A stretch of 64,000 nt of DNA from a virus: positions 67,275 through 131,274 of IMG/VR virus record IMGVR_UViG_3300024299_000001. One strand, written 5' to 3'. The position numbers and the translations under genes were made by a program. The number at the start of each line of letters is the position of its first letter. The stretch's first letter is position 1. The notes under the pieces are model-generated. The model made no database searches. It was not told the DNA's origin and saw only the letters and a program-made list of their open reading frames with translations. Shown here piece after piece: positions 5,327-55,858 of the stretch.

Positions 5327-7543
5327 TTAACCTATATTTGCCATATTAGCAAAAGCATAATTATTTGGTTCAGGTAATTTTAAAGACATATCAAAAAAAT
5401 TAGGTACGATATCATGTGCAACAACAGTACCTATATTGCCTGCATGAATTGTGTACTCATAAAACTTTTCTGGATCTGTTATAGGATGCTGTAATAACCT
5501 GGCTGATTGTGCCATTAAAAGATTCTCAGCCAATAAATTAGGTTCAAGTTCTTCTTGAATAAGTGCTAATTCATCCCATTGCTTTTCTGCAGCCAATAAG
5601 AAATTATCATACTCTTGCTTTAGGTTTTCTAACTGACCGGCTATAAACTCATTACTCTTATTTAACAATGCAGGAACCATGGATAATAATATATCAGAAG
5701 TAAGCATGTCTTTACCGAATACAGATATACCAGAACTGGAGGGCCCTTTAAATGCTGTAATAGCAAAAATAAGAATTGCTAAAATTGCAGCACCTTCTGG
5801 CCCAATGGCTTCTACAATAAGCTGTACACCATAATTTAAAGCTACTCCAAAAACAACTTGAGGTAGGATAAAATTAATAACGGCCATATAACCTGCCGAA
5901 GCTGCAGTAGCAAGATCTAACAACCAAGGCTGAGCAGACCATAATGCAAAAGCAAGAGATGCAAATAAAAAGATAAATTTAAACAAACTAGATTCATACC
6001 ATTTAAGCTTAACAACATCTACAGCATTAATAACCAGTATAAGTGCTTCTTGATAAAGTTGATTTTGCATTATCTTATTCATATTGAAAGATACACCGTA
6101 ATGCACTGGTACAATAAAGTTTAAATTATCTGCATCATCGATTACATCATTAAGGTAAGTATTAACTGAATGCCCGGTCCATATGTCATTATTATGTCTG
6201 GGAGCGTATACAGTTACTTCTTTATATAAATTAGCTTCTGTCTGTAATTTGAAGACTACTTTAGAATTATCATCCCAAGAGCTTAAATTATAAACATCAC
6301 CAACAGTATTCCGGGTAAACGTCTTAGTAGCAGTGCCAATAGCCCCAATTGAACCAACAATAAAAACTGTAGTAATATATAAGAATTCAATTTTAAGTTT
6401 AAGGCCATACTCCACAAGAGAGGTATTCATGGTGTAGGTTTGTTTAGTATTAACATTTACTGTTGAATCTCCATTAAGAATATCATCCACATGGGTCCAA
6501 GCAGTAGCAGTTGTTAAGGCACCAATATGTTCAAAGAATTCTCCAAGGTACCAGATGCCTGCATTACTGGTAGTCTGCATATTAACCCCAAACATTACAT
6601 AAGCATGATCAATATCATCTTTATCTGGGTTATCATTTATTTGGGTCGCAATCTCATCAATATCTAATTTTATTTTCTTTAGTAAAGCTTTACCGGTAAT
6701 ATATTGTTGAGTACTCTGATAGGGTGCAGAAGTTAGATCAATATTTACTCTTCTAATAGGAACCACTGGCATAAAATCAGTAGAAGTTTGTATTGTAACG
6801 GTACCACTTAAAGCTGGATGTGTGCCATCGGAAAGTTTATATGCCCACCATTTGAGTGGCAGGGTCGTTGCGCCACCAGCATCCAGCTCGTAATAAGAGG
6901 CCATACAGTATTCAGCACCTAATTCATAGCTGGAACTGATTACCTGGTCTTCATTGTAATAAGTAGCAGGATCTGATTCAACGGTAGCATTAGCCTTTGA
7001 GTGGAGAACAACGTAAGAGGTTAGAATTTTATAAGTAATGGTAACTGTAACATTATCTGCAGCTAAAGACAGTTCATACAAAGTGACTTTATTAATTGCT
7101 AAGGCACCAGTGGAACTAACAGTAGGAATAGTCATTCCTGCAGGAAAGGTAGTTATTTCTTGAGTTAAATAATCATAGGTTCGGTCAGCAGTTAAAAATG
7201 GTAGAACAAGATAGTAGATCGATAAAGGATCTGTGAAGTATGCTTCAACTTGTACTCCAAGGGGTAAGATCATATCAGTAACAATTGCAGCTGCAACATC
7301 AGCTTTAGGGGCGGTAAATAAAGTATCAGTAGTTCCTTGTGGTAAACCAAGAGTATAAAACTGTTCAGCATAGCCCATAAAGCCGGCTACTTTGGTGGCC
7401 ATACCACCTAGTACAATATTAGTTAAACTGTTGCTTATATTGTTGCCAGATAAAACGGCAGAAAGGACAGCATTCTCTACAGGAGAATTATCAGGCTCCA
7501 TAAGCTGCATTGTTGCGGTTGCTACTGTAACTCTAGTTGCCAT
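5327..7543 (-). CDS. Virion-module protein with C-terminal cluster of transmembrane helices
   Basis: 738-aa ORF. Hydrophobic run FKFIFLFASLAFALW...VINFILPQVVFGVAL...AILAILIFAITAF near the C-terminus. Confidence 0.35.
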   Translation of the reverse strand: MATRVTVATATMQLMEPDNSPVENAVLSAVLSGNNISNSLTNIVLGGMATKVAGFMGYAEQFYTLGLPQGTTDTLFTAPKADVAAAIVTDMILPLGVQVEAYFTDPLSIYYLVLPFLTADRTYDYLTQEITTFPAGMTIPTVSSTGALAINKVTLYELSLAADNVTVTITYKILTSYVVLHSKANATVESDPATYYNEDQVISSSYELGAEYCMASYYELDAGGATTLPLKWWAYKLSDGTHPALSGTVTIQTSTDFMPVVPIRRVNIDLTSAPYQSTQQYITGKALLKKIKLDIDEIATQINDNPDKDDIDHAYVMFGVNMQTTSNAGIWYLGEFFEHIGALTTATAWTHVDDILNGDSTVNVNTKQTYTMNTSLVEYGLKLKIEFLYITTVFIVGSIGAIGTATKTFTRNTVGDVYNLSSWDDNSKVVFKLQTEANLYKEVTVYAPRHNNDIWTGHSVNTYLNDVIDDADNLNFIVPVHYGVSFNMNKIMQNQLYQEALILVINAVDVVKLKWYESSLFKFIFLFASLAFALWSAQPWLLDLATAASAGYMAVINFILPQVVFGVALNYGVQLIVEAIGPEGAAILAILIFAITAFKGPSSSGISVFGKDMLTSDILLSMVPALLNKSNEFIAGQLENLKQEYDNFLLAAEKQWDELALIQEELEPNLLAENLLMAQSARLLQHPITDPEKFYEYTIHAGNIGTVVAHDIVPNFFDMSLKLPEPNNYAFANMANIG

Positions 7544-7556
7544 AAGCTCCTACAGT

Positions 7557-7581
7557 AATGGGGGCTAATTAAGCCCCCATT
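7557..7581. other. Perfect 10-bp hairpin (AATGGGGGCT/AGCCCCCATT) between two structural genes, no U-tract
   Basis: Inverted repeat read directly; possible RNA stability or processing element. Confidence 0.3.
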
Positions 7582-7587
7582 AGTTAA

Positions 7588-8622
7588 TTAAGGAATTGGT
7601 GTAACATTTGCCCCAGCCAGAAGAACATCCAACATTGCACCAAGATTAGGATCATCTAAACGATTGGCTGATTTAACTGTACCAACACCCATAGTAGCAG
7701 AAACTGACCAAGCATCAACCATAAGCTTAGCTGCTTTCTGTTCTGCATCCCGAGTAAATCCATCAGTCTGAGCTTGGAATAAAGCTTTCTGTTTACCAAT
7801 AACACCAGCAACAATTGCAGCACTAACAGTAAGATCTTGGATCTGGGCTAATTCAGTTGCTTTTTTCTGATCAAGTAAGTTCTTTTCAGATAGAATTTTC
7901 TCTCTCTGAGGATATGCTAAACCTTCAATAACAGTAACAGAGTTCATCTGTCCTAAAGTAGCTGGTTTAGAGTCACTAGTATTAGATAATTCAGTTACAA
8001 TTTTCTGTTCTGTTAGAGCTACATCCATCTCTTGTTGTTGTTTTTTATATTCAGCAAAACCACCAAGGTTATCATTTCCATTATATCCGTATCCAGCAGC
8101 TTTAGCTGTAACAAGACTGTCGCCAGTTTGGACCAATTCAGTAATAATCTTCTGACCAAGTAAATCCTTCTCAGCAGTAGCAGTAGTAGTCTGAGCAGTT
8201 GCTAAAGCTAATTGCTGGGTAACCAGAGCCTTTTGATCAGCAACTACTCCTTCAACAGCAGTCGTACCATTAAAACCAAGATTAAGTAATATAGTATCAT
8301 CAGTCTGAGCAAGCTCAGTAACAGTCTTCTGTCTTACCAAGCCAATCTCTGCCCTGATCCGTTGGCCATTCTGATGGCTGTCAAGGAAAGCAATTGATTG
8401 CTGCATAACAGCGCTAAGAGCCCCTAAATATACTTTGGAGTACTCATCACCAGTAATACGGTCATTGTTGTATTCATCAAGCAAATGGAGCTTAACAACA
8501 GCCATTAGCTTATCAAATACACCGGTACCAGTAATGCTGCTGGTAGTTAACTGCTCAACATCTGGTTCATCCAGACTAACATTTGGTTCTACTTCAATTG
8601 GATCAAGGGTTAAGTTTGCCAT
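7588..8622 (-). CDS. Virion-module protein with four internal QK-x-(V/I)TEL-x-QT-x-D repeats
   Basis: The protein contains RQKTVTELAQTDD, GQKIITELVQTGD, EQKIVTELSNTSD and DQKKATELAQIQD. Confidence 0.35.
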   Translation of the reverse strand: MANLTLDPIEVEPNVSLDEPDVEQLTTSSITGTGVFDKLMAVVKLHLLDEYNNDRITGDEYSKVYLGALSAVMQQSIAFLDSHQNGQRIRAEIGLVRQKTVTELAQTDDTILLNLGFNGTTAVEGVVADQKALVTQQLALATAQTTTATAEKDLLGQKIITELVQTGDSLVTAKAAGYGYNGNDNLGGFAEYKKQQQEMDVALTEQKIVTELSNTSDSKPATLGQMNSVTVIEGLAYPQREKILSEKNLLDQKKATELAQIQDLTVSAAIVAGVIGKQKALFQAQTDGFTRDAEQKAAKLMVDAWSVSATMGVGTVKSANRLDDPNLGAMLDVLLAGANVTPIP

Positions 8623-18769: not shown

Positions 18770-20365
18770 TTACACTACATAAGAATCAATTGTTGATACA
18801 TTGTCTTCCTTCTCACTTTCATAAACATTATTTTGGTCTTTATGCATGATCACATTATCACTTGGTCTCCATACTGTCAAACTACTCAACATAGAAATAG
18901 TATCTATAAAGTCATCGTGTTTACTCTTCATACCGCTCGGAGAAACTAATTGCAACTCATTTATGCACTCTTGCATTGGAGGGGTGTCTTTTAATTCTAA
19001 AGGAAGATACATTTTTTTAGCCTTGAACCAAGGAACAACAATATTAAATCTAACCATTTTATGGGAGTTAGGTCTTATGCCCGGCTGGTTACTATTATTG
19101 TCAGTTGCGAGCATAAAATAAATATTACGATCCATCATTTCACTTTGGATCCAGGGTATAAATCCACCTTGCTGGCCACTCACCTCAACACCTACTGTCT
19201 GGGGTTGCCACTTCTGAGCCAACCTAAATAAGTCATCAATGTTATGGTTCATTAACTGCTTTTTACAAATGCCATCGATCCAAAACCAAAAGCCTTTATT
19301 ATTCAGGGCCCACACCGATATAACAGAAAAATCACTAGAACTCTTCTTACTGGTGGCAAAATCAGTAGTAATATAATAATTAAAGGCCCCTAAATTATTT
19401 AAGATCATTTCATGTTTATACCAACAAATATCTGAATCCTGGATTAACCTGTCTTCCTGAGACATAATTCTCAACATTAACTCCTGGTTAAACGCACTGA
19501 TCTCACCATTCTCTGAGAGAGTATCATACTCCTGCTGTACAAAGTCAAAGGTAAACCTGTCCTCCCAAGCGCCTTTAAAGTCCTCTCTGGCACAGGGAAA
19601 CTCTTCACAGATCGGATATACTCTGGTATTCCAACCACTACTGCCTGCAGCTTCATATAATGGGTCTCTTTGATTAAAAGGGGTACCGGTCCATATAACC
19701 ATACGCTTAGCAGGATGCATAGCCTGTCGAGCAGCTTTATATATAATATTCTTTATATCCCGGGTAATAGTAGCTGATTCAGCATTCTTATCACTCATTA
19801 AATCGTCAAAGCCTGCCCAGGATGGCCTGGTCCCATATTCTTTAAATCCTCTCACACCGGTACTGGCCCCGAACCCTCTGACACAAAATCTATGGCCGGC
19901 AGCATTAATAAACTCCCATCGGACATCAGTAAAGTTTGCAGTAGGAATATAAGTTTTTAAGAATTCAGAATTATTATACCTGAACTCTAAATTCTTACGC
20001 ATACTCTTAATACCGTTATCAATGGTGTCACTGATATACATTGCCACTGACACCTCACCAAAATCAAAGAATTCACCATATACTGCAATATATAAAAACA
20101 TGTACTCATGTAGAGCAGTCGTTTTGGCACTGCCACGGAAAGACACAAATAGATTATTATTATTAGCATTTATATTATCGAGCATATCCATATGGAAGAC
20201 AGGTGACTTATTTTCTTCACCTTCAGTACCATTAACTAACTTAATAAAAGTAATATAAGCCAGTGCTTCTTCTGACGGGACATAATGCTCATTGAAAAAA
20301 GAATAATTAACTTCATTAAGTAATTTTTCTAAAGATGGGTTATCTTTTAATTTATCAGTCATCAT
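18770..20365 (-). CDS. terL: Terminase large subunit (N4 gp68-like)
   Basis: 531 aa. Walker-A-like FRGSAKTT, coupling region VIWTGTPFN, and nuclease-domain acidic motifs (TTDFATS..DFSVISVWA, HDDFIDTISM). Confidence 0.8.
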   Translation of the reverse strand: MMTDKLKDNPSLEKLLNEVNYSFFNEHYVPSEEALAYITFIKLVNGTEGEENKSPVFHMDMLDNINANNNNLFVSFRGSAKTTALHEYMFLYIAVYGEFFDFGEVSVAMYISDTIDNGIKSMRKNLEFRYNNSEFLKTYIPTANFTDVRWEFINAAGHRFCVRGFGASTGVRGFKEYGTRPSWAGFDDLMSDKNAESATITRDIKNIIYKAARQAMHPAKRMVIWTGTPFNQRDPLYEAAGSSGWNTRVYPICEEFPCAREDFKGAWEDRFTFDFVQQEYDTLSENGEISAFNQELMLRIMSQEDRLIQDSDICWYKHEMILNNLGAFNYYITTDFATSKKSSSDFSVISVWALNNKGFWFWIDGICKKQLMNHNIDDLFRLAQKWQPQTVGVEVSGQQGGFIPWIQSEMMDRNIYFMLATDNNSNQPGIRPNSHKMVRFNIVVPWFKAKKMYLPLELKDTPPMQECINELQLVSPSGMKSKHDDFIDTISMLSSLTVWRPSDNVIMHKDQNNVYESEKEDNVSTIDSYVV

Positions 20366-21037: not shown

Positions 21038-21562
21038 CTATTTTATAATCATCCAATCATCAGCCAGCATATCAGTCTGTGAAGCTAACCAGCCTGGTAA
21101 CCATTTCTTATCAGCAGTCCACATTGCAATATACGGAAGCGTTACAAGGGGTGTGTCTTCACCAATCCATTTTGCGGTTCGATCATTAACCTTTCTATCT
21201 GTCCCTTGTGTTGAGAAAGGAGGTAAAGTCATTCCAGTCATAAGTACCAACCACATATCTTTACCATTCCAACCTGCCCGGGCAACCTTATGCCCAGTTT
21301 TAAGTGCTGCAATAGCTGTTCCAAAGGTCATAGAATCTTCAAGTGATTTATAAGCTGCCTCAAACACATCCATTGGGCTCCATGAGATATAATGACAACC
21401 GCTTTCCAAGGGTCCATCAAATTTACCCTTAGCATTTGAGTAACCAACCATATAGCCATCAGCTAATGGTTCATCCGGAACATCCATTCTCTGTGAATCA
21501 CAGTAATCTCCACGAGTCATAGGTGTTGCTTTAATAATTTTTGTACCAATAAACTTTTCCAT
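21038..21562 (-). CDS. DUF2829-domain protein (family that includes the Thoeris anti-defence protein Tad2)
   Basis: C-terminal half: FGTAIAALKTGHKVARAGWNGKDMWLV...WLASQTDMLADDWMII, which matches the DUF2829 signature as I recall it. Confidence 0.55.
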   Translation of the reverse strand: MEKFIGTKIIKATPMTRGDYCDSQRMDVPDEPLADGYMVGYSNAKGKFDGPLESGCHYISWSPMDVFEAAYKSLEDSMTFGTAIAALKTGHKVARAGWNGKDMWLVLMTGMTLPPFSTQGTDRKVNDRTAKWIGEDTPLVTLPYIAMWTADKKWLPGWLASQTDMLADDWMIIK

Positions 21563-22513: not shown

Positions 22514-22942
22514 TTATTTTTCATTGGTTAATTCTCCTTTATTCTCCCACTGTTCAAGCACATCATCAAAAGTAGAGAAATCTGATAGAACTGCCCGGGG
22601 GTTAATCAAGTAATGCTGCTGTTTAATCCGTCTAACTAATCCCAAACCCTCAAGGGCTTTGTAGGCCACACTTAACCGATTAATAGCAACTTTACCCTCT
22701 GGCCGGTAAACAGCAATATTAGTGTAAGGGTCTCTTGAATCAACCAACTCCCACCATAGCCAGGCTACCTGCTTAGACATAGCCTGAATGGTCTTATACA
22801 AATGTGGGTAATTCTTAACTCTGGTTTGGTAACGCATATTCCCTCCAATACAATCATAAGATGGTGTTACTACTTTATGCTTAACCTTCCGGCTAATATA
22901 AACCTCTTCATCATCTCCGATAACCTCTACAAACTGTGTCAT
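22514..22942 (-). CDS. Winged-helix DNA-binding protein, RepL-like; paralog of 48203..48649
   Basis: The segment SKQVAWLWWELVDSRDPYTNIAV...RLSVAYKALEGLGLVRRIKQQHYLINP aligns with SKPAYSLFNQLKSNRNPTNNISF...SYIINP in the other ORF. Confidence 0.4.
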   Translation of the reverse strand: MTQFVEVIGDDEEVYISRKVKHKVVTPSYDCIGGNMRYQTRVKNYPHLYKTIQAMSKQVAWLWWELVDSRDPYTNIAVYRPEGKVAINRLSVAYKALEGLGLVRRIKQQHYLINPRAVLSDFSTFDDVLEQWENKGELTNEK

Positions 22943-22972
22943 AGTTTATCCCCTTATTTTATGGATAAACAC

Positions 22973-23000
22973 AGCATACCATATAAAACATGTAAGTCAA
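22973..23000 (-). promoter_or_regulatory. Sigma70-like promoter for the leftward operon
   Basis: On the minus strand: TTGACT, then 16 nt ending in TGG, then TATGCT (extended -10), about 30 nt upstream of the ATG at 22942. Confidence 0.35.
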
Positions 23001-23095
23001 GGACTATTTTCCCATAAAAAGTGTGGTAAGAAATTGTTCATAACTATTTGAAATTATTAGTGATTCGCAGATTGGTGACGTCTATATATATATTA

Positions 23096-23160
23096 TTTGC
23101 GCGTACATGCGCGCGCGTATATAAGAGCATGCTGCGCATACCCATGTTTCGCTACGCTCA
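23096..23160. other. GC-rich island C with a ~26-nt perfect purine-pyrimidine alternation (TGCGCGTACATGCGCGCGCGTATATA) and a CGCTACGCT box
   Basis: Read directly; lies in the divergent terminus-like region. Confidence 0.45.
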
Positions 23161-23232
23161 ACTAAGAGCAACTAAAACTGAACCAAAGAGAAAGAACACA
23201 AGATCGGTAGATCTGTAACCGATTATTAAGGG

Positions 23233-23247
23233 TGCGCCAGAGGCGCG
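23233..23247. other. 5-6 bp stem / 3-nt AGA-loop hairpin (GCGCC AGA GGCGC)
   Basis: Inverted repeat read directly. Confidence 0.3.
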
Positions 23248-23384
23248 TAAAAAGAAAAAGGACCGAGTTTACCAAGCCCGATCCTTTTTCAACAACCACT
23301 AACCAAAAGGAGTTTAACATGTCCCATGAGAAGACATTAACTAAAACCTATACTAATTAAATTTAACTTGCAAGTAATAAAACT

Positions 23385-23420
23385 AAAAAAGAGTAAACTA
23401 GTTAAAGTTCACTCTTTTTC
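23385..23420. terminator. Terminator-like hairpin flanked by an A-run and a T-run (bidirectional type)
   Basis: AAAAAAGAGTAAAC..GTTCACTCTTTTT; 8 of 9 bp pair. Confidence 0.3.
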
Positions 23421-23516
23421 AGGGAGGTTAAAAAAAGGCCCGTGAGAAACCTTAATATTACTATTATATTATATAATTACCTTAAGCAAGTAATTTTAAC
23501 TTTTTGCAACTTTTCT

Positions 23517-23700
23517 CAAAAAATAAAATTTGAGTACACCGGTAGTTCTGTTTCAGGTTTTTCAGAAAAAAATAAATTAGACGTAGATGAAGTTCGGTTC
23601 CAGGTTTTTGTCAAAAAAATAAATTACGTACAGATGAAGAGTTTGCGAGTTTTTTAAAAAAATAAAAATTACGTACACCGGTAGTTCTGCTCTGTAAAGA
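23517..23700. repeat. Four imperfect ~43-49-bp direct repeats, each with an A6-7TAAA(A)TT head, in A-B-B-A order
   Basis: Units 1 and 4 share GTACACCGGTAGTTCTG. Units 2 and 3 share GTA(G/C)A..GATGAAG. Confidence 0.6.
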
Positions 23701-23771
23701 GCCTACAACACAAACCCACCCCCGGGTGCTTAAAACTTTAGGGCTACGTTTTCATCACCCACCATCTGCCT

Positions 23772-23797
23772 GGCCTCTGGCTATATCAATGGCACTA
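23772..23797 (+). promoter_or_regulatory. Candidate vRNAP-type hairpin promoter (variant loop TCT)
   Basis: GGCCTCTGGCTATATCAATGGCAC; member of the 7-copy motif family. Confidence 0.4.
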
Positions 23798-23827
23798 ACG
23801 CCACAATCCCTAGCTAGGAGATTTATC

Positions 23828-24085
23828 ATGTTTCAAAATTTAACCCGGGTAATGACCCGTACATCCGATGTCATTGTGGACACAATGGGTGTCCTATCTA
23901 TTAACATGTCCTCACTTAAAGTCATAAGCGAAGGCGGTAACGTCAAAGCTGAGGACTTCAAAGCAGCATGTATCGATGATGCTGCTCTTGCCGCTGACAA
24001 GCGTAAGTATGACATCACAAAACAACGTATTGACCTCGATGCCGATCATCAAGCGCTTCTGGCCACTCCTAAACCTAAGAAATAA
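23828..24085 (+). CDS. Hypothetical early protein
   Basis: Internal ATG of track ORF 23726..24085, preceded by AGGAG. The upstream part of the track ORF overlaps the promoter motif. Confidence 0.4.
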   Translation: MFQNLTRVMTRTSDVIVDTMGVLSINMSSLKVISEGGNVKAEDFKAACIDDAALAADKRKYDITKQRIDLDADHQALLATPKPKK

Positions 24086-24093
24086 CCCTAACC

Positions 24094-24131
24094 AGCCATA
24101 CCCAGTCCATCGGGTATGGCTTTACTCTTTT
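24094..24131 (+). terminator. Rho-independent terminator
   Basis: 10-bp stem AGCCATACCC/GGGTATGGCT with an 8-nt loop, then TTACTCTTTT. Confidence 0.55.
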
Positions 24132-24330
24132 ACTACACAAAGAACACATTAAGATAGTTGCTTTAAGATTGCTGTTTAGCTCCGTGCGTAAGAGGTCGTA
24201 ATTACCTGTAATAACACTGTTATTTAAATGTTTACACTGTTTAGCTTGATTTAACATAGTTCATCACTCCGACCATCGGTCACTATACCTACCCGACATA
24301 CTAACACCTTCAGTCTGTATCAACACCTCT

Positions 24331-24356
24331 ACCTCCGGTTATATAAACGGATAGTT
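24331..24356 (+). promoter_or_regulatory. Candidate vRNAP-type hairpin promoter
   Basis: ACCTCCGGTTATATAAACGGATAG. Confidence 0.45.
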
Positions 24357-24755
24357 GTTATAAAGGCAAGTTCATCCATGTGACATATCTCCGTAACGAG
24401 ATATATGCACGTTGAACTAGCAAAGCATAACAACTGTTCCTTTGCTAGAAAGACATTACCGCCGAACGGCAATGAGCGGTAGTATCATGCATCGAAACTA
24501 TAAATAAAGCCGACAAGCTTAGTGCACTTGGAACTCCCAACGCACTAATTCACACCTTGGACCGTGTGTCTTAAATTACTAACCAGTTGGTTAGTCCATT
24601 ATTTGATTGACCAGAATGGGGAGGTGTTTGAAAAGAATATGCATAGCTCGTTGCTTAATAACTGCAAGCATATCACCTAAATCTACATTGGTCTAATCAT
24701 CTTAAAGCTATAACCTCTGGGCAAGGTTAAAAGAATACTGCCCATTAACTTGCCC
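24346..24755 (+). ncRNA. Candidate structured early non-coding RNA or long leader
   Basis: About 410 nt between two promoter motifs, with no ORF longer than 15 codons on the + strand and at least six 6-9-bp helices read by eye. Confidence 0.35.
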
Positions 24756-24787
24756 AACCTCCGGTTATATCAATGGAAGTATTAATA
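24756..24787 (+). promoter_or_regulatory. Candidate vRNAP-type hairpin promoter
   Basis: AACCTCCGGTTATATCAATGGAAGTATTAAT. Confidence 0.5.
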
Positions 24788-24826
24788 CTTCTTTAAACTA
24801 ATTACTACTAATAGGAGCTACCAACC

Positions 24827-25000
24827 ATGCGTAATACTCAAACTGAAGAACTAACCAACTTACTCAATAATATTAATATTACTAACTTTCAAAAACAAAT
24901 TAAAGCCTTTGATATTACTAAAAATCAATTCTTCTTTATTGATAAAGATACAGTTATTCATGCTTATTGTATTAAAGGTATTTGGTACTGCAAAGCTTAA
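24827..25000 (+). CDS. Hypothetical early protein (57 aa, below track cutoff)
   Basis: ATG preceded by TAGGAG; hand translation MRNTQTEELTNLLNN...GIWYCKA. Confidence 0.4.
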   Translation: MRNTQTEELTNLLNNINITNFQKQIKAFDITKNQFFFIDKDTVIHAYCIKGIWYCKA

Positions 25001-25073
25001 TAATTATACCTTTCTAATTAAATTATAAGTGTGGGCCTAACCGGGCTCACACATTAACCAAAGGAGATAGACC

Positions 25074-25280
25074 ATGCGTAACCAAATCGGAGCACGTTAC
25101 CTACATCACTGCATCAATCGTACTGATAAGTCATTCAATGGCATCATTAACATTGCCAACCGACAATATGTTAGACTATCAGCAACTACCCTTAAACGCA
25201 CTAAAACAGGAGACTTAAATAATGGAAAATCATTCAAGCAGTTCAGAAAATACAAAGAAAATAACCAGGTTTTGGGATGA
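25074..25280 (+). CDS. Hypothetical early protein
   Basis: 68 aa with a strong SD (AAAGGAG). Confidence 0.35.
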   Translation: MRNQIGARYLHHCINRTDKSFNGIINIANRQYVRLSATTLKRTKTGDLNNGKSFKQFRKYKENNQVLG

Positions 25281-25758
25281 CCTTAAATCCGGGCATTTTG
25301 CGTCTATGATCAAGGAATCCAGTAAGGGCAATGCTTTATCAAATGCCCAGGAGGTCTGTAATATCATGAAGCCTTTCTTTGCCAGGCATGACGACATCGA
25401 AAAAATGTACTGTATCTTACTGGATGCCAAAAATCACATCATTGCTATCGAAAAGATGTTTTCTGGCTCAATCACAAGTTCCGCAGTATACCCCAGAGAA
25501 ATTGTAAAAAAGGTGTTGAAAAATAAAGCTGCAGCAATAATTTTGACACATAACCACCCGTCGGGCTCCACAAAGCCATCATCTGAAGATCTTATGATTA
25601 CAGCACGAATTGGAATTGCACTTTCAAGCATTGATGTAACCTTGCATGACCATCTGATTATTGGAGAAAATTATTACAGTTTTTCTGAACAGGGATGGTT
25701 AGAGAAAACAAACCAAAAATATCAGGATTTCATCTTTGCCAGCATCATAGCAGATTAA
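25222..25758 (+). CDS. radC: RadC-like JAB/MPN-domain protein
   Basis: HNHPSGSTKPSSEDLMIT (JAMM H-x-H-P-S-G motif) plus the typical RadC C-terminal fold length. Confidence 0.75.
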   Translation: MENHSSSSENTKKITRFWDDLKSGHFASMIKESSKGNALSNAQEVCNIMKPFFARHDDIEKMYCILLDAKNHIIAIEKMFSGSITSSAVYPREIVKKVLKNKAAAIILTHNHPSGSTKPSSEDLMITARIGIALSSIDVTLHDHLIIGENYYSFSEQGWLEKTNQKYQDFIFASIIAD

Positions 25759-29376: not shown

Positions 29377-29571
29377 ATCAACTGGCTCACAGTCATCCCA
29401 GGTTACATAAAAAACGGGATTGAGACATCGAGCCGCATAATGGGTTATCCTTAATTGGGTAGCCCATTAAAAATTAATACTCTAATATTTTCAGACATAT
29501 ATTATATACATATGGAATTTGAGATCATTGGTATTAGGGTATTAATTTTAAAAATTTAAAAGGAGACAAGC

Positions 29572-31146: not shown

Positions 31147-32361
31147 ATGAGATTGTATACCGGTAAAGAGTACTTACAGATTGATATGGCTAATCATTTT
31201 GGTTTAGATAAATCTCAGTTTGGTGGTCGATTGAAGTGGGTACAAGATAATGAAACTCAACTTGAAACATTAGTAGAACATGCCAAGGAACCCTTTAGAT
31301 TTGCTGCTGCACTAATGGCTTACCGCAAGACTCAGGCTGGGCAACCTACTGGTTATTTGGTTGGTTTTGATGCCTGTGCTTCCGGTCCACAGATCATGAG
31401 TACTTGGATGGGTTGTAAAGTAGGTGCCCGTAATACTGGTCTCACTGGTCAAACCAGAATGGATATTTATAAAGAAACTGTTAAAGCAATGGATAAAATT
31501 CTTGGTAAAAACAGTAACTATAATCGTGATGCAGTGAAAATTAGTTTAATGACTCATTATTATGGTTCAAAGGCTGAACCTAAGAATGCCTTTGGCGAGG
31601 ATACCCCAGAGCTTGAAGCCTTTTATGAGGCACAGAAGATAGTTGCACCCGGGGCAAGTGAATTGATGCATCACATGTTAAATGCCTGGCAACCCTTTGC
31701 ACTACAGCATACATGGATCATGCCAGATGGTTTCTTTGTTAACAAGAAAGTAAAAGATATGGTTGATGATAAAATTGAGGTAGATGAGCTTGAAGGCCAT
31801 CCTTGCTTCATCTATCGGCATACTGAGAATGTAGGCTTAGAAGAAGGTATTTCATTAGCTGCTGATTGTGTCCACAGTGGTGATGGCTTTGTAGTAAGAG
31901 AGATGAATTACCGATGTAACTATGATCGTACAGCATTGAAAAGAGCTGAACGTATGCTACATTACCGGTTATTCCAAGGCATACCTGCTGTAGGTGCTAC
32001 CAGTAAGATAGAACGATTAGCTGATCAGCATCAGTTTATATCTTTGGCTGGTGCACATGACTTGACCCAAGAAAGAGTGAATAGTTATAGTTATGAATAT
32101 GCTTACAATTTATTGAAATTAGTTAAGCAGACATTAGCTAAACCCGCATTTCCAATAGTATTCGTTCATGATGATTTTAAATGCCATGCTAATAATATGA
32201 ATATAGTTAGACAGACTTATAATGACATATTTGTAGAGATGGCTAATAGCAATATAATTAATGCTATTCTTACAATGATTACTGGTAAACCAACAAATAT
32301 TACTAAATTATCTGATGACTTGTCTGTTGAAATTAGAAGTTCTGAATACTTCCTATCTTAG
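31147..32361 (+). CDS. T7-like single-subunit RNAP family, catalytic subunit (N4 RNAP II gp16-like)
   Basis: 404 aa. Motif A is GFDACASGPQIMS (T7 DGSCSGIQH), motif B is LMTHYYGSKAEP, motif C is FVHDDF. Confidence 0.85.
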   Translation: MRLYTGKEYLQIDMANHFGLDKSQFGGRLKWVQDNETQLETLVEHAKEPFRFAAALMAYRKTQAGQPTGYLVGFDACASGPQIMSTWMGCKVGARNTGLTGQTRMDIYKETVKAMDKILGKNSNYNRDAVKISLMTHYYGSKAEPKNAFGEDTPELEAFYEAQKIVAPGASELMHHMLNAWQPFALQHTWIMPDGFFVNKKVKDMVDDKIEVDELEGHPCFIYRHTENVGLEEGISLAADCVHSGDGFVVREMNYRCNYDRTALKRAERMLHYRLFQGIPAVGATSKIERLADQHQFISLAGAHDLTQERVNSYSYEYAYNLLKLVKQTLAKPAFPIVFVHDDFKCHANNMNIVRQTYNDIFVEMANSNIINAILTMITGKPTNITKLSDDLSVEIRSSEYFLS

Positions 32362-32375
32362 TTAATTGAAGTATA

Positions 32376-32428
32376 TCCTATAGGGCTCACCTCCGGTGAG
32401 TTCTGTAGGATTATTTCTTATTTTTTTT
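32376..32428 (+). terminator. Rho-independent terminator (core CTCACC-TCC-GGTGAG)
   Basis: Extended hairpin followed by TTATTTCTTATTTTTTTT. Confidence 0.7.
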
Positions 32429-37904: not shown

Positions 37905-37917
37905 TAAATACAGCAGT

Positions 37918-38009
37918 TTAGCAGGGCACTCCATCGGGGAGAGAGTATATTTTTTAAACGAATGAAATTAACATATCTTTAGTTTTTACTCATGCCCTGC
38001 TAATTTTTT
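37918..38009 (+). terminator. Terminator-like 11-bp stem (TTAGCAGGGCA/TGCCCTGCTAA) enclosing a 64-nt loop, followed by T6
   Basis: Read directly. Confidence 0.4.
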
Positions 38010-38129
38010 AAATAAACAGTTTAGTTAACATATTAACAGAATGGTCTGTTAACTCACAGGTGGAGTCGAGAAGTTAACCGGTATACGGGAGCCGTTCCAC
38101 TACCCGTCTGATAAAATAAGGAGTAACCA

Positions 38130-38240
38130 ATGCCCAATATAACATTGACCCAAGACCAAGATAATGCTCTTAACTCTTTTCTTGATTTTCTTAATCAACC
38201 AAAAGAGAAATACATGATAATCCAAGGAGCTGCTGGATGT
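38130..38240 (+). CDS. Dda/RecD-like SF1 helicase, exon 1 (37 codons; below track cutoff)
   Basis: MPNITLTQDQDNALNSFLDFLNQPKEKYMIIQGAAGC. It ends inside the Walker A motif; SD AAGGAG. Confidence 0.75.
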
Positions 38241-39220
38241 TAACTTATAGCATCCTTTGAGGAGCAATCCTCTCAAAATAAATTCCGTGAATTGCTGGAA
38301 ACTCTTAGCACGTAATGGTGAAGACAATCAGCAGCCAAGCTTAGGAAGGAATTCCTTTGAAGGTTCAACGATCAGGATATACTGCCCAGAACGGGGAATG
38401 AAATCCATAGAGATCAAGTGATCTCGAAGTGCGGAACTCTATATAACAAATAATTCATTGATTTTCCTAAAATTAAAGAGTAAACCTTATGTAAGGTTTA
38501 AACGTATAAATAAAGGAAAATATCATGCAAGAACAGATTCGAGACATTAAAGGCTATGAAGGTAGATATCAAGTTACTAACACAGGTAAAATTTTTTCTT
38601 TACCTAATGGTAGCAGAAAAGGAATAAGAGAATTAAAACAAGAAATAAGCAAACGAAAATGTACTTCTTACAGAAGAATTACATTAAGTGTAAACGCCAA
38701 ACCAAAACGTTATCAAGTACATCAGTTAATGGCTATTGCTTTTATTCCCAATCCTGATAATAAACCTTTTATTAATCATATTGATAATAATGGTGAAAAT
38801 AATTTTATAGATCCCAATGACTTATATGGCCCTAATACAAATATCGAATGGTGTACTCATAAAGAAAATATGAAACATTCGTTTAATCAAGGCCGACAAG
38901 ACTTGGTAAAAAAATTAGGCGGTAAAGCTACTGCTACAATTAAAAAAATTAAAACTATAAAAAAATTAAAATCTTTATTAAATAATAGATTAATCACTAC
39001 CAGTATTTATAGTACACATTCAGGTACTCGTAGAAAAGTCACATATCAATGTAAATATTGTAATAATGTTTTTAGTAGAAGATCTGATTCACCCGCCGTA
39101 TTACGTGGTGGTGTATGTACAGATTGTTATAGAGATGATGATATGATCTAGACTGCATAGAAATATGTAGAAGTTCATTGACGAACTGATGTAAATTAAC
39201 GCCTTACATTGAATGTTTCG
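38241..39220 (+). mobile_element. Group I intron carrying an HNH homing endonuclease gene, inserted inside the helicase Walker A motif
   Basis: The exon end GGATGU pairs with intron GCAUCC 9 nt downstream, giving a 6-bp P1 with terminal U.G. The intron ends in G. Splicing gives GAAGC-GKSTL. The motifs AATTGCTGGAAAC and CAATCAGCAGC are shared with the intron at 52916. Confidence 0.75.
38525..39151 (+). CDS. HNH homing endonuclease (I-HmuI-like)
   Basis: IKGYEGRYQVTNTGKIFS, VHQLMAIAFIPNP.NKPFINHIDNNGENN...NIEWCTHKEN, and a C-terminal CxxC..CxxC. Confidence 0.8.
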   Translation: MQEQIRDIKGYEGRYQVTNTGKIFSLPNGSRKGIRELKQEISKRKCTSYRRITLSVNAKPKRYQVHQLMAIAFIPNPDNKPFINHIDNNGENNFIDPNDLYGPNTNIEWCTHKENMKHSFNQGRQDLVKKLGGKATATIKKIKTIKKLKSLLNNRLITTSIYSTHSGTRRKVTYQCKYCNNVFSRRSDSPAVLRGGVCTDCYRDDDMI

Positions 39221-47778: not shown

Positions 47779-47810
47779 TAATATATTTAAATAATATTTA
47801 ATTTAAATTC

Positions 47811-47960
47811 CACGCAGTCTTGTCGTACAGGGTACTATCGTCGACCCGAGCTAAAGCTCTCTCTCCTCTGCACCCTTCCCGACCGACTGCTGGAGTGAGC
47901 ACAGAGGGCGCGAGCGAAGCGAAGGCGACCGGTAAGTGCGTCTACGACAGCAGGAAGGTC
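47811..47960. other. GC-rich island B; the core at 47892-47941 is related to island A
   Basis: GGAGTGAGCACAGAGGGCGCGAGCGAAGCGAAGGCGACCGGTAAGTGCGT compared with the reverse complement of 22411-22468. Confidence 0.5.
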
Positions 47961-48052
47961 ATATAAATTATATATAAAACCTCTTTATATACTATATGTG
48001 TACATGACAGAATGTTTATTGGCAATAAATTCAGATAGTTACAAAAGACAAA

Positions 48053-48102
48053 ATCAAGTATATATTTTTGTTTTTAAAGTAAAATTCAAATATATACTTG
48101 AT
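48053..48102. promoter_or_regulatory. Perfect 15-bp inverted repeat ATCAAGTATATATTT / AAATATATACTTGAT with a 20-bp spacer
   Basis: Read directly; lies 100 bp upstream of the wHTH gene 48203. Confidence 0.5.
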
Positions 48103-48202
48103 CTTTTAACAGGTACCAGATAAGATGGCATAAACGAAATAAGACACAGTATCCCCATACTTTAATAGTCTTATTTTCTAAATAATGAGGTCACTATAAC
48201 AG

Positions 48203-49602: not shown

Positions 49603-50611
49603 TACAGAAAACCAATCACTTTCAATAGCCGTATGGCTTGTAACCGATTCTTATGATAAAGATCCCTTTCCCGGGCAATTGCATATAAGTGTCACTGGAC
49701 TGCTTAAACCAGCCAGAATGATTGTTTTAAGTGGTAGACTTACTGATGCCCAGGCTGTAGACCCAGAAGAAACAGAATATGATATTTCAATGAATATACC
49801 CAATAGAATGGGTACTGCTATTCATAGTGGTATCGAGAATGCTTGGATCAAAAACTATAAACAAGCATTAAAAGATCTGGGTTACCCACAAGCAATAATT
49901 GATAGAATTGTTATTAACCCATCATACAATGACCGACAAGCAGTTCCTAACTGTATTCCAGTTTATATGGAACAGCGTATACATAAAACCATTGAAGGCT
50001 ATATTGTCAGTGGTAAATATGATTTTGTTGGTGAAGGAATCATAGAAGACTTCAAATCAACTGGTGTATATGGTTACATGAAGAAAGATCCACATGATGA
50101 TGAACTTAAAATATTACAGGGTAGTATTTATCGTTGGCTCAATCCTGATATTGTTACTGCAGATCATATGCTTATCCAATATGTATTTACTGATTGGTCC
50201 AAGCTTGATTCAAAGATCAGGGCTAAACGAGGTTACCCAGCATCTCGCATTGTACCCAAAAAATTAATGCTCAAATCTATTCCGGAAACTGAATCCTGGA
50301 TCCGTCAGAAGATCCAATTAGTTAAATCTTTAGAATTGGTTCCAGAACATGAATTACCCCTTTGCACTGATGAAGAACTATGGCAGAGCAAACCAGTGTA
50401 TAAATACTTCAAAAACCCTACTAAAACGAAGAGGAGTACCGCAAATTTTGATGATTACCACTTAGCCCATGCCAGACTACTCAAAGACGGTAATTGTGGC
50501 TTAATCAAAGAATTTAAGGGCACAGTACGCCGATGTGGTTATTGTACCGCATATGAACTGTGTACTCAGAAAAATGCATATTTAAACAATGGAACACTAC
50601 AGTTACCTTAA
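49589..50611 (+). CDS. PD-(D/E)XK (Cas4/RecB-like) nuclease with C-terminal Cys cluster (N4 gp43 position)
   Basis: Start is the internal ATG after AGGAG. Contains GKYDFVGEGIIEDFKSTG and RRCGYCTAYELC. Confidence 0.6.
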   Translation: MKYTNTENQSLSIAVWLVTDSYDKDPFPGQLHISVTGLLKPARMIVLSGRLTDAQAVDPEETEYDISMNIPNRMGTAIHSGIENAWIKNYKQALKDLGYPQAIIDRIVINPSYNDRQAVPNCIPVYMEQRIHKTIEGYIVSGKYDFVGEGIIEDFKSTGVYGYMKKDPHDDELKILQGSIYRWLNPDIVTADHMLIQYVFTDWSKLDSKIRAKRGYPASRIVPKKLMLKSIPETESWIRQKIQLVKSLELVPEHELPLCTDEELWQSKPVYKYFKNPTKTKRSTANFDDYHLAHARLLKDGNCGLIKEFKGTVRRCGYCTAYELCTQKNAYLNNGTLQLP

Positions 50612-55693: not shown

Positions 55694-55858
55694 ATGTGGA
55701 AACTCTGGGATGATGTTAAAATCATTGGGAGTTTGATATTAGTTGCTTTTTTTGGTTTCCTATTCTTATTAAGTGTTCCACTTATAATTATATTTGGTAT
55801 TAGTCTTGCTTTAGGTTTTATTGGCTGGATCCTATTTACTGATAAACCACTCCCATAA
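55694..55858 (+). CDS. Small membrane protein (54 aa, below track cutoff)
   Basis: MWKLWDDVKIIGSLILVAFFGFLFLLSVPLIIIFGISLALGFIGWILF.. Confidence 0.35.
   Translation: MWKLWDDVKIIGSLILVAFFGFLFLLSVPLIIIFGISLALGFIGWILFTDKPLP

Follow-up and report, generated by a model that had tools for sequence, protein, structure and literature searches.

Promoters of the N4 family work as extruded DNA hairpins, and the rules established for the virion RNA polymerase of coliphage N4 comprise a template loop 5'-G-R-A-3', a closing C:G pair and a C at +1 on the template (PMC4496689). Early promoters of the Pseudomonas phage LUZ7 combine a stem of 4 bp or more with a 3-nucleotide (nt) loop, and transcription starts at a G located 13-14 nt away from the centre of the hairpin; this N4-like phage has also been reported to make structured, non-coding intergenic transcripts, namely putative small RNAs that are late, shorter than 250 nt, located between orf69 and orf70 and not driven by early hairpin promoters (PMC9163698). 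In the literature that we searched, no N4-like phage is described as having an early non-coding unit under the control of a hairpin promoter. Here we describe a candidate for such a unit in a 64,000-nt stretch of DNA (positions 67,275 to 131,274 of the IMG/VR virus record IMGVR_UViG_3300024299_000001; hereafter the window), which is a circularly permuted genome of an uncultured marine N4-like phage (Schitoviridae), assembled across the junction of the genome ends. The unit, at 24331-24826 of the window, begins with a promoter-like element termed P2, and is probably a non-coding early transcription unit or a long leader. We assign a probability of roughly 55% to the reading that P2 is a genuine early hairpin promoter yielding an untranslated multi-hairpin RNA, i.e. 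that the unit is an early cassette with an RNA product.

P2 (24331-24350, plus strand) is composed of ACC-TCC-GGT, TATAT, four arbitrary nucleotides and GG, with the start predicted at G24349/G24350. It belongs to a family of five plus-strand copies of the pattern CCTCYGG-YYATAT-N4-GG, located at 23773 (P1), 24331 (P2), 24757 (P3), 26147 (P4) and 28464 (P5), all within 23.7-28.5 kb and upstream of the RNAPII gene; the positions CCTC-GG--ATAT----GG are invariant in all five. Six matches to the motif occur at up to two mismatches, against 1.0 expected, and none of 100 shuffles reaches six. The promoter-like elements that an earlier sequence-only reading had placed at 24331 and 24756 are confirmed as members of this family, and consist of a 14-nt perfect direct repeat, ACCTCCGGTTATAT, shared by P2 and P3 (24331 and 24757). 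The loop is 3 nt long, TCC in P2-P5 (template GGA) and TCT in P1 (template AGA), in agreement with the 5'-GRA-3' template rule, and is closed in all five copies (CC-TCY-GG) by the C:G pair that the N4 rule requires. The invariant GG, which we take from the sequence as the predicted start, lies 14-15 nt from the loop centre throughout. A hairpin begins at this +1 GG at P2 (24349), P3 (24775) and P5 (28480), at the promoters of a distantly related contig termed L042, and at P1 and P2 of N4 (GGACA-TGT-TGTCC and GGATG...CATCC at 107 and 576, respectively). The recurrence of hairpins that begin at the GG in several promoters backs the assignment of the start site, as well as the view that P2 is in use.

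The same promoter architecture is found in the N4 sequence at 95 (GTTGC-TTC-GCAAC), 564 (GAAGAAGC-TCC-GCTTCTT) and 4553 (loop TCC), in each case with the GG 11-12 nt from the loop centre, and the L042 promoter AGC-TCC-GCT corresponds to the core of the N4 hairpin at 564. The promoters described here thus share with those of N4 the template loop 5'-GRA-3' (TCC; TTC at position 95), the C:G closing pair, a predicted GG start at a fixed distance, the clustering near the entering end on the early-gene strand, and a transcript that would begin with a hairpin at +1. They differ in the spacing of the GG (11 nt from the loop centre in N4) and in the conserved YYATAT box that here follows the hairpin. 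With LUZ7 they have in common short-stem early promoters with 3-nt loops and a similar spacing of the predicted start, whereas the LUZ7 structured transcripts show no sequence similarity to the P2 segment. The resemblance of P2 and P3 to N4-type virion polymerase hairpin promoters is thus supported at the sequence level in the loop and the closing pair; their position on the early strand and the presence of a candidate virion RNA polymerase gene also speak for the hairpin-promoter reading proposed earlier, whereas the length of the stems does not. The stems comprise 3 bp in P2 (ACC/GGT), 4 bp in P3 and P5, and 3 bp plus a G-T pair in P1 and P4. Two further hairpins of the window resemble promoters. 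The first, perfect and 17 bp long (32375-32411), has the core ACC-TCC-GGT as in the early promoters, lies immediately behind the RNAPII gene and has a T-run after it; it is a terminator that may double as a middle-class hairpin promoter. The second, an N4-type hairpin AAGTG-TTC-CACTT followed by ATAATTATATTTGG, lies on the plus strand at 55771-55783, far from the early region.

P2 is the exception in its family as regards coding signals, since the other four promoters are followed by AGGAG and ATG 45-70 nt downstream. In N4 the first two hairpins are each followed by gp1 or gp2 within about 60 nt, and the third (4553) precedes the RNAP1 gene by 50 nt, whereas P2 has no protein gene behind it. 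The region 24153-24826 is the largest plus-strand gap without an ATG open reading frame (ORF) of at least 40 amino acids (aa) in 23700-59300, so the description of the segment as ORF-free was right in this respect and wrong in its claim that no plus-strand ORF exceeds about 15 codons: ORFs of 38 aa (GTG, 24564-24680), 29 aa (TTG), 25 aa (ATG, 24405-24482) and 21 aa exist. Stop codons number 11, 12 and 6 in the three frames of about 137 codons each. No Shine-Dalgarno-like motif occurs 4-12 nt before any ATG, GTG or TTG in 24340-24812, the first match being that of the gene at 24827, and gene callers placed no gene inside the P2 element in any related contig. Translated comparison (tblastn) of the ORFs of relatives with the region gave only noise, and on this ground and that of the number of stops the reading as a decayed gene was rejected. 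Within 24086-24826 the gene callers proposed a single gene, an ORF of 60 aa on the minus strand (24075-24257) in the upstream spacer, which has GGAG 9 nt before its ATG, was called in several contigs and overlaps both the terminator and the spacer upstream of P2; it is probably spurious, as L042 has no equivalent call.

To describe the folding we used z-scores of the folding energy relative to shuffled sequences (200 shuffles for segments). The whole segment (-125.5 kcal/mol) has z = -3.9 and ranks fourth among 66 windows of 480 nt, for which the genome background has a mean z of -1.0 and a standard deviation of 1.7; the segment is therefore elevated in structure, as had been claimed, and not unique. 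The region 24346-24449 has z = -5.3 (none of 200 shuffles folds as well) and ranks first among 1,229 windows of 104 nt over the 64 kb, on a grid that was anchored on this very hairpin. It contains H1, a 91-nt imperfect hairpin (24349-24439, -33.9 kcal/mol) with a 13-bp basal helix (24349-61/24427-39). The spacer 24122-24345 (224 nt) folds worse than its shuffles (z of +2.9 and +2.0); as this upstream spacer is anti-structured and the basal helix of H1 begins at G24349, structure switches on at the predicted start.

Every helix that had been read by eye is present where it had been placed. The alternative 9-bp helix CTAGCAAAG/CTTTGCTAG (24417-24448) and the basal helix of H1 are mutually exclusive, as one of two options offered earlier had it, and H1 is favoured by 5.8 kcal/mol, or by 8.4 kcal/mol with the majority allele C24418, so that forcing the alternative costs 5.8-8.4 kcal/mol. 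The other option, a pseudoknot of the two, was rejected: a loop of 0 nt would have to span 13 bp of stem, which is sterically implausible, and of the two helices the alternative one is disfavoured. Downstream of H1 follow H2 (TACCGC/GCGGTA, 24452-24486), which is present and not significant (24450-24514, z = -0.8), and H3 (TTAGTGC/GCACTAA, 24519-48), H4 (CACAC/GTGTG, 24551-68) and H5 (ACTAACC/GGTTAGT, 24578-95), all on the plus strand and together with z = -3.3 (24515-24600; one of 200 shuffles as good). H5 is followed by CCATTATTTGATTG, and the two form a weak terminator-like site at 24578-24608 (seven pairs, three of them G-C, in a terminator scan) with a tail inferior to that of either clear terminator (24094 and 25781). 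The middle domain (24604-24699) is held together by long-range pairing, and its ensemble is poorly defined (24601-24705, z = -2.1, 8 of 200 shuffles as good). It is followed by a composite hairpin of ATAACC/GGTTAT and GGGCAAGGTT/AACTTGCCC (24709-24769), which ends inside P3 (24706-24800, z = -2.95). A complementarity of 11 nt between 24585-24595 and codons 8-11 of the 57-aa gene behind P3 was considered and rejected, as it is not conserved and the gene is replaced in other strains. A search for tRNA and tmRNA genes with ARAGORN found none.

The segment is bordered on both sides by elements of the early region. Upstream, the gene 23828-24085 ends in an intrinsic terminator at 24094-24131 (10-bp stem with six G-C pairs, 8-nt loop, T-rich tail TTACTCTTTT), which bears out the strong terminator reported there and is identical in all relatives. 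Between this terminator and P2 lies a C/A-rich unstructured spacer (24122-24330) with conserved boxes, including ACCCGACATACTAAC at 24296-24310, which is partly alignable with the terminator-to-promoter spacer of L042. The blocks that 24122-24345 shares with L042 (6925-7232, minus strand) include ACCCGAYATACTAAC, located 25-33 nt before the promoter hairpin, and this spacer might hold a promoter for another polymerase. Downstream, P3 (24757-24776, AACC-TCC-GGTT, predicted start G24775/G24776) is followed by the short leader of the next gene (24775-24829), with a 5' hairpin at 24775-24792, AGGAG at 24813-17 and ATG at 24827, and by a 57-aa ORF (24827-25000), all on the plus strand.

The P2 segment was found in 20 contigs (JGI, ENA, Logan and one metagenome-assembled genome), all at least 99% identical, with up to four differing positions in 24086-24800, which is too little for covariation analysis. 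One single-nucleotide polymorphism (SNP), C24749T, changes a G-C pair of GGGCAAGGTT/AACTTGCCC to G-U and keeps the pairing on the plus strand only; this, too, is too little for covariation. Among the 20 contigs the upstream 85-aa gene occurs in three alleles, and the downstream position is taken by either of two genes; the P2 unit is present in all these variants, and no strain without it was found. The alleles of the first early gene (23828-24085) have 100, 79 and 71% amino acid identity, with the divergence confined to the 5' two-thirds (23824-24049), and the gene behind P3 (24800-25005) is swapped, with 57 aa here and 90 aa in the contigs L002 and L009-L011, between flanks that are 99-100% identical. 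The regions 23824-24049 and 24800-25005 look like hypervariable early cassettes. The distant relative L042 has 53% identity in the adjacent late protein and keeps the whole layout, i.e. A-rich repeats, a box CAAACCCACCCCCG, a small first gene with its terminator, a spacer of about 240 nt with ACCCGAYATACTAAC, and a second promoter. Comparison of the two layouts reveals that in our phage a non-coding unit of about 426 nt between two promoter copies occupies the slot of a small early gene.

From these features we propose the following course of events. The virion RNA polymerase, injected with the DNA, would start at about G24349 from P2, and the product would be an untranslated RNA made of a string of independent hairpins, of which the dominant one, 91 nt long, would form from the first nucleotide. 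As the unit sits where the relative has a small early protein gene, it can be regarded as a putative promoter-bounded cassette with an RNA instead of a protein product. Transcription may end at the weak terminator near 24600, which would yield an RNA of about 250 nt; the more probable outcome is read-through past the hairpin abutting P3, in which case the RNA would extend the next early mRNA at its 5' end by a long, structured stretch. A regulatory leader in the translational sense, as suggested earlier, finds no support, since the long and short transcripts do not differ in how accessible the ribosome site is predicted to be: the unpaired probabilities of the Shine-Dalgarno sequence and the AUG are equal in the P2-initiated (552 nt) and the P3-initiated (126 nt) RNA. 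Our guess is that stabilisation or processing via the long 5' hairpin would be a more economical role than a translational switch.

The early region of phage T7 offers a parallel, as it has tandem promoters A1-A3 and, ahead of gene 0.3, a long and structured leader that is not translated and contains an RNase III site. In both phages several promoters lie near the entering end, a hairpin-rich untranslated leader of several hundred nt is present or predicted, and transcription is, or would be, coupled to entry. In T7, however, host RNA polymerase acts at duplex promoters, and processing by RNase III has been demonstrated, while for H1 it is a possibility. Promoter-bounded early cassettes are also known to shuffle between phage strains (e.g. 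the T4-type promoter-early stem-loops). The P2 unit resembles them in being flanked by 14-nt identical promoter repeats and located between genes swapped among strains, and differs in that its cargo appears to be non-coding. Judged from its sequence features, it would thus be a phage non-coding early RNA or structured leader of a kind already known, present in one uncultured population only. Because the polymerase arrives with the DNA, early products are the first phage molecules in the cell, and if the RNA proves functional, the immediate-early arsenal of N4-like phages would include RNA besides small proteins, and the unit would provide a compact test case consisting of a 20-nt promoter and a 91-nt 5' hairpin. 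Independently of this, the invariant GG at a fixed distance combined with a hairpin at +1, seen in this phage, L042 and N4, may sharpen the prediction of start sites in uncultured schitoviruses.

Several observations weigh against the proposal that P2 is an early promoter with an RNA product. At 3-4 bp the promoter stems fall short of the 5-7 bp of N4 and are borderline by the standard of LUZ7. The z-scores are equal for the two strands, so that folding shows no asymmetry between them. For the accessibility of the downstream ribosome site the leader is predicted to make no difference. The variant T24418C, of which C is the majority allele, weakens the end of an inner helix of H1 by 2 kcal/mol. 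A comparison with Rfam 15, suggested earlier as a check, gave no match in the whole window at gathering thresholds, and a permissive search of 22900-25100 returned chance-level matches only (E >= 0.46, far below the gathering scores). The second promoter of L042, the only distant relative with the same layout, directly drives a 74-aa gene. High conservation was rejected as a signal of selection, as most of the genome is conserved to the same degree: it is 99-100% identical among these strains and only patches have diverged, hence the block is not special in being nearly identical. Finally, no homologue was found outside the one near-clonal population in any collection searched. None of the annotated phages matched 24050-24900 in a DNA search run in distant mode. 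Relatives retrieved from IMG/VR via RNAPII and the large terminase (TerL) either belong to the same population or have a TerL of up to 70% identity and no similarity to 22943-24826, and those retrieved via the upstream 85-aa gene belong to the same population only. A 142-aa late protein led to L042 and L044, both without the element, plus short or unrelated contigs. A metagenome scan for a promoter pair spaced 398-428 nt apart recovered one contig, already known, and a scan for the conserved upstream box gave the known contig and one chance match in IMG/VR and 12 chance matches in GTDB genomes.

Two of these points, the protein gene of L042 in the same slot and the restriction to one population, are also what one would expect if P2 were needed only for being transcribed, i.e. 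if it were an entry-proximal promoter that loads the virion RNA polymerase and the 410 nt behind it were a spacer or the remnant of a gene cassette. We consider this unlikely, although it is the alternative that survives best. In N4, hairpin promoters are located at 95 and 564, close to the entering end, and according to a current model transcription from P1-P3 pulls the N4 genome into the cell, with a separate polymerase copy at each promoter (PMC13434306); the location of P1, P2 and P3 of our phage within 1 kb fits this model of genome entry. One would not expect a neutral spacer, however, to contain the 104-nt window whose structure is the most significant in the 64 kb, or to change sharply from anti-structured to structured sequence at the start site. 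There is also no trace of a recently decayed ORF, given the 6-12 stops per frame and the lack of protein similarity to the early genes of relatives. Were the segment no more than a transcribed spacer, it would be an ordinary finding.

The equal z-scores of the two strands would also fit an action of the inverted repeats in DNA, as cruciforms or hairpins that serve replication priming, packaging, terminal repeats or the extrusion of P2 and P3. Thermodynamics cannot separate RNA from DNA, or one strand from the other, because the helices are essentially Watson-Crick palindromes. Promoters of this family do work as extruded DNA hairpins (PMC4496689), the hairpin 24709-24769 encloses P3, and the region is near the expected genome ends at the late/early junction. 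Nonetheless we regard this explanation as somewhat less probable still than that of a spacer, since candidate end-like or iteron-like features are located elsewhere (the repeats at 23503-23689 and the conserved box at 23709-23750), L042 keeps such features and lacks the element, and the structure starts at the predicted RNA start instead of being centred on a symmetric site. The contig ends at 24328, 24314 and 24748, which could be taken for genome termini or a 420-bp terminal repeat, were rejected as such because they fall at SNP-1 or SNP + k (k = 141 or about 127), so that SNP positions and the k-mer size of the assembler, not physical ends, explain the breaks.

The A-rich repeats themselves comprise a 47-nt tandem pair and a 48-nt pair 139 nt apart (23503-23689), and sit in a 0.8-kb non-coding stretch between the late and the early genes; L042 has similar repeats at 7540-7770. 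Iterons, a terminal-repeat region and a late-promoter region are possible interpretations. The box consists of CAAACCCACCCCCG, 22 nt and CGNTTT (23709-23750), about 55 nt 5' of the first early promoter hairpin, and is also present in L042 (about 7500-7460, minus strand) and in L044/L045, where the neighbouring protein is only about 50% identical; it may be a genome-end, first-entry or packaging signal. A palindrome of alternating purines and pyrimidines, TGCGCGTACATGCGCGCGCGTATATA, is found at 23098-23129 amid A+T-rich non-coding DNA.

Within the proposal of an early RNA product, it is doubtful that P2 yields a discrete, stable RNA of about 250-410 nt that is made by the injected virion RNA polymerase in the first moments of infection and acts in trans (e.g. 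as a decoy or sponge for a host nuclease, an RNA-binding protein or a defence sensor), and we rate this a little below an action in DNA; among the early-class products of Schitoviridae such an RNA would be the first that is non-coding and functional. The abundance and the decoy, sponge or anti-defence roles suggested earlier found no support in the analysis. Very small proteins, i.e. 25 aa (ATG 24405), 26-38 aa (in 24564-24696) or 13 aa (ATG 24639), are a highly improbable product, for although such short ORFs of 21-38 aa exist and a GGAGG (24621-24625) lies 13 nt before ATG 24639, their lengths are at the chance level for non-coding A+T-rich sequence, no gene is called within the element in any contig, and none of the starts has the properly spaced ribosome-binding motif that every neighbouring gene has as AGGAG 7-9 nt upstream.

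The assignment of the phage is based on the genes of the window. Late genes occupy the minus strand at 1-22942, and among them the large terminase (18770-20365) matches PHROG 38; 482 phage records were matched by it, and among the matches listed all are N4-like phages, the closest relatives being Vibrio and Alteromonas phages with about 60% identity. An ORF of more than 966 aa that runs off the start of the window matches the virion RNA polymerase profile phrog_2206 (E = 7e-6) over profile positions 334-905 of 3406, i.e. in the N-terminal third. Early and middle genes lie on the plus strand from about 23700, with an N4-type RNAPII subunit at 31147-32361, which places the P2 unit about 0.6-1 kb inside the early region. 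The nearest annotated relative is Vibrio phage 1.238.A, in which the layout of the early region differs. The late genes also include a Tad2-like protein (PF11195, phrog_872; 21038-21562, minus strand), and the early genes a RadC/JAB-like protein (phrog_10276; 25222-25758, plus strand).

Other structured or ORF-free spots occur on the plus strand of the same window. At 29438-29550 an A+T-rich hairpin of about 80 nt comes after a terminator hairpin of 13 bp, a 620-nt ORF-free gap lies at 37905-38524, and a further structured segment is located at 49760-49885. A structured region at 47798-47901, inside a 424-nt ORF-free gap (47779-48202), has z = -5.8 on the 104-nt grid, and a z of only -1.4 when 47780-47920 is refolded.

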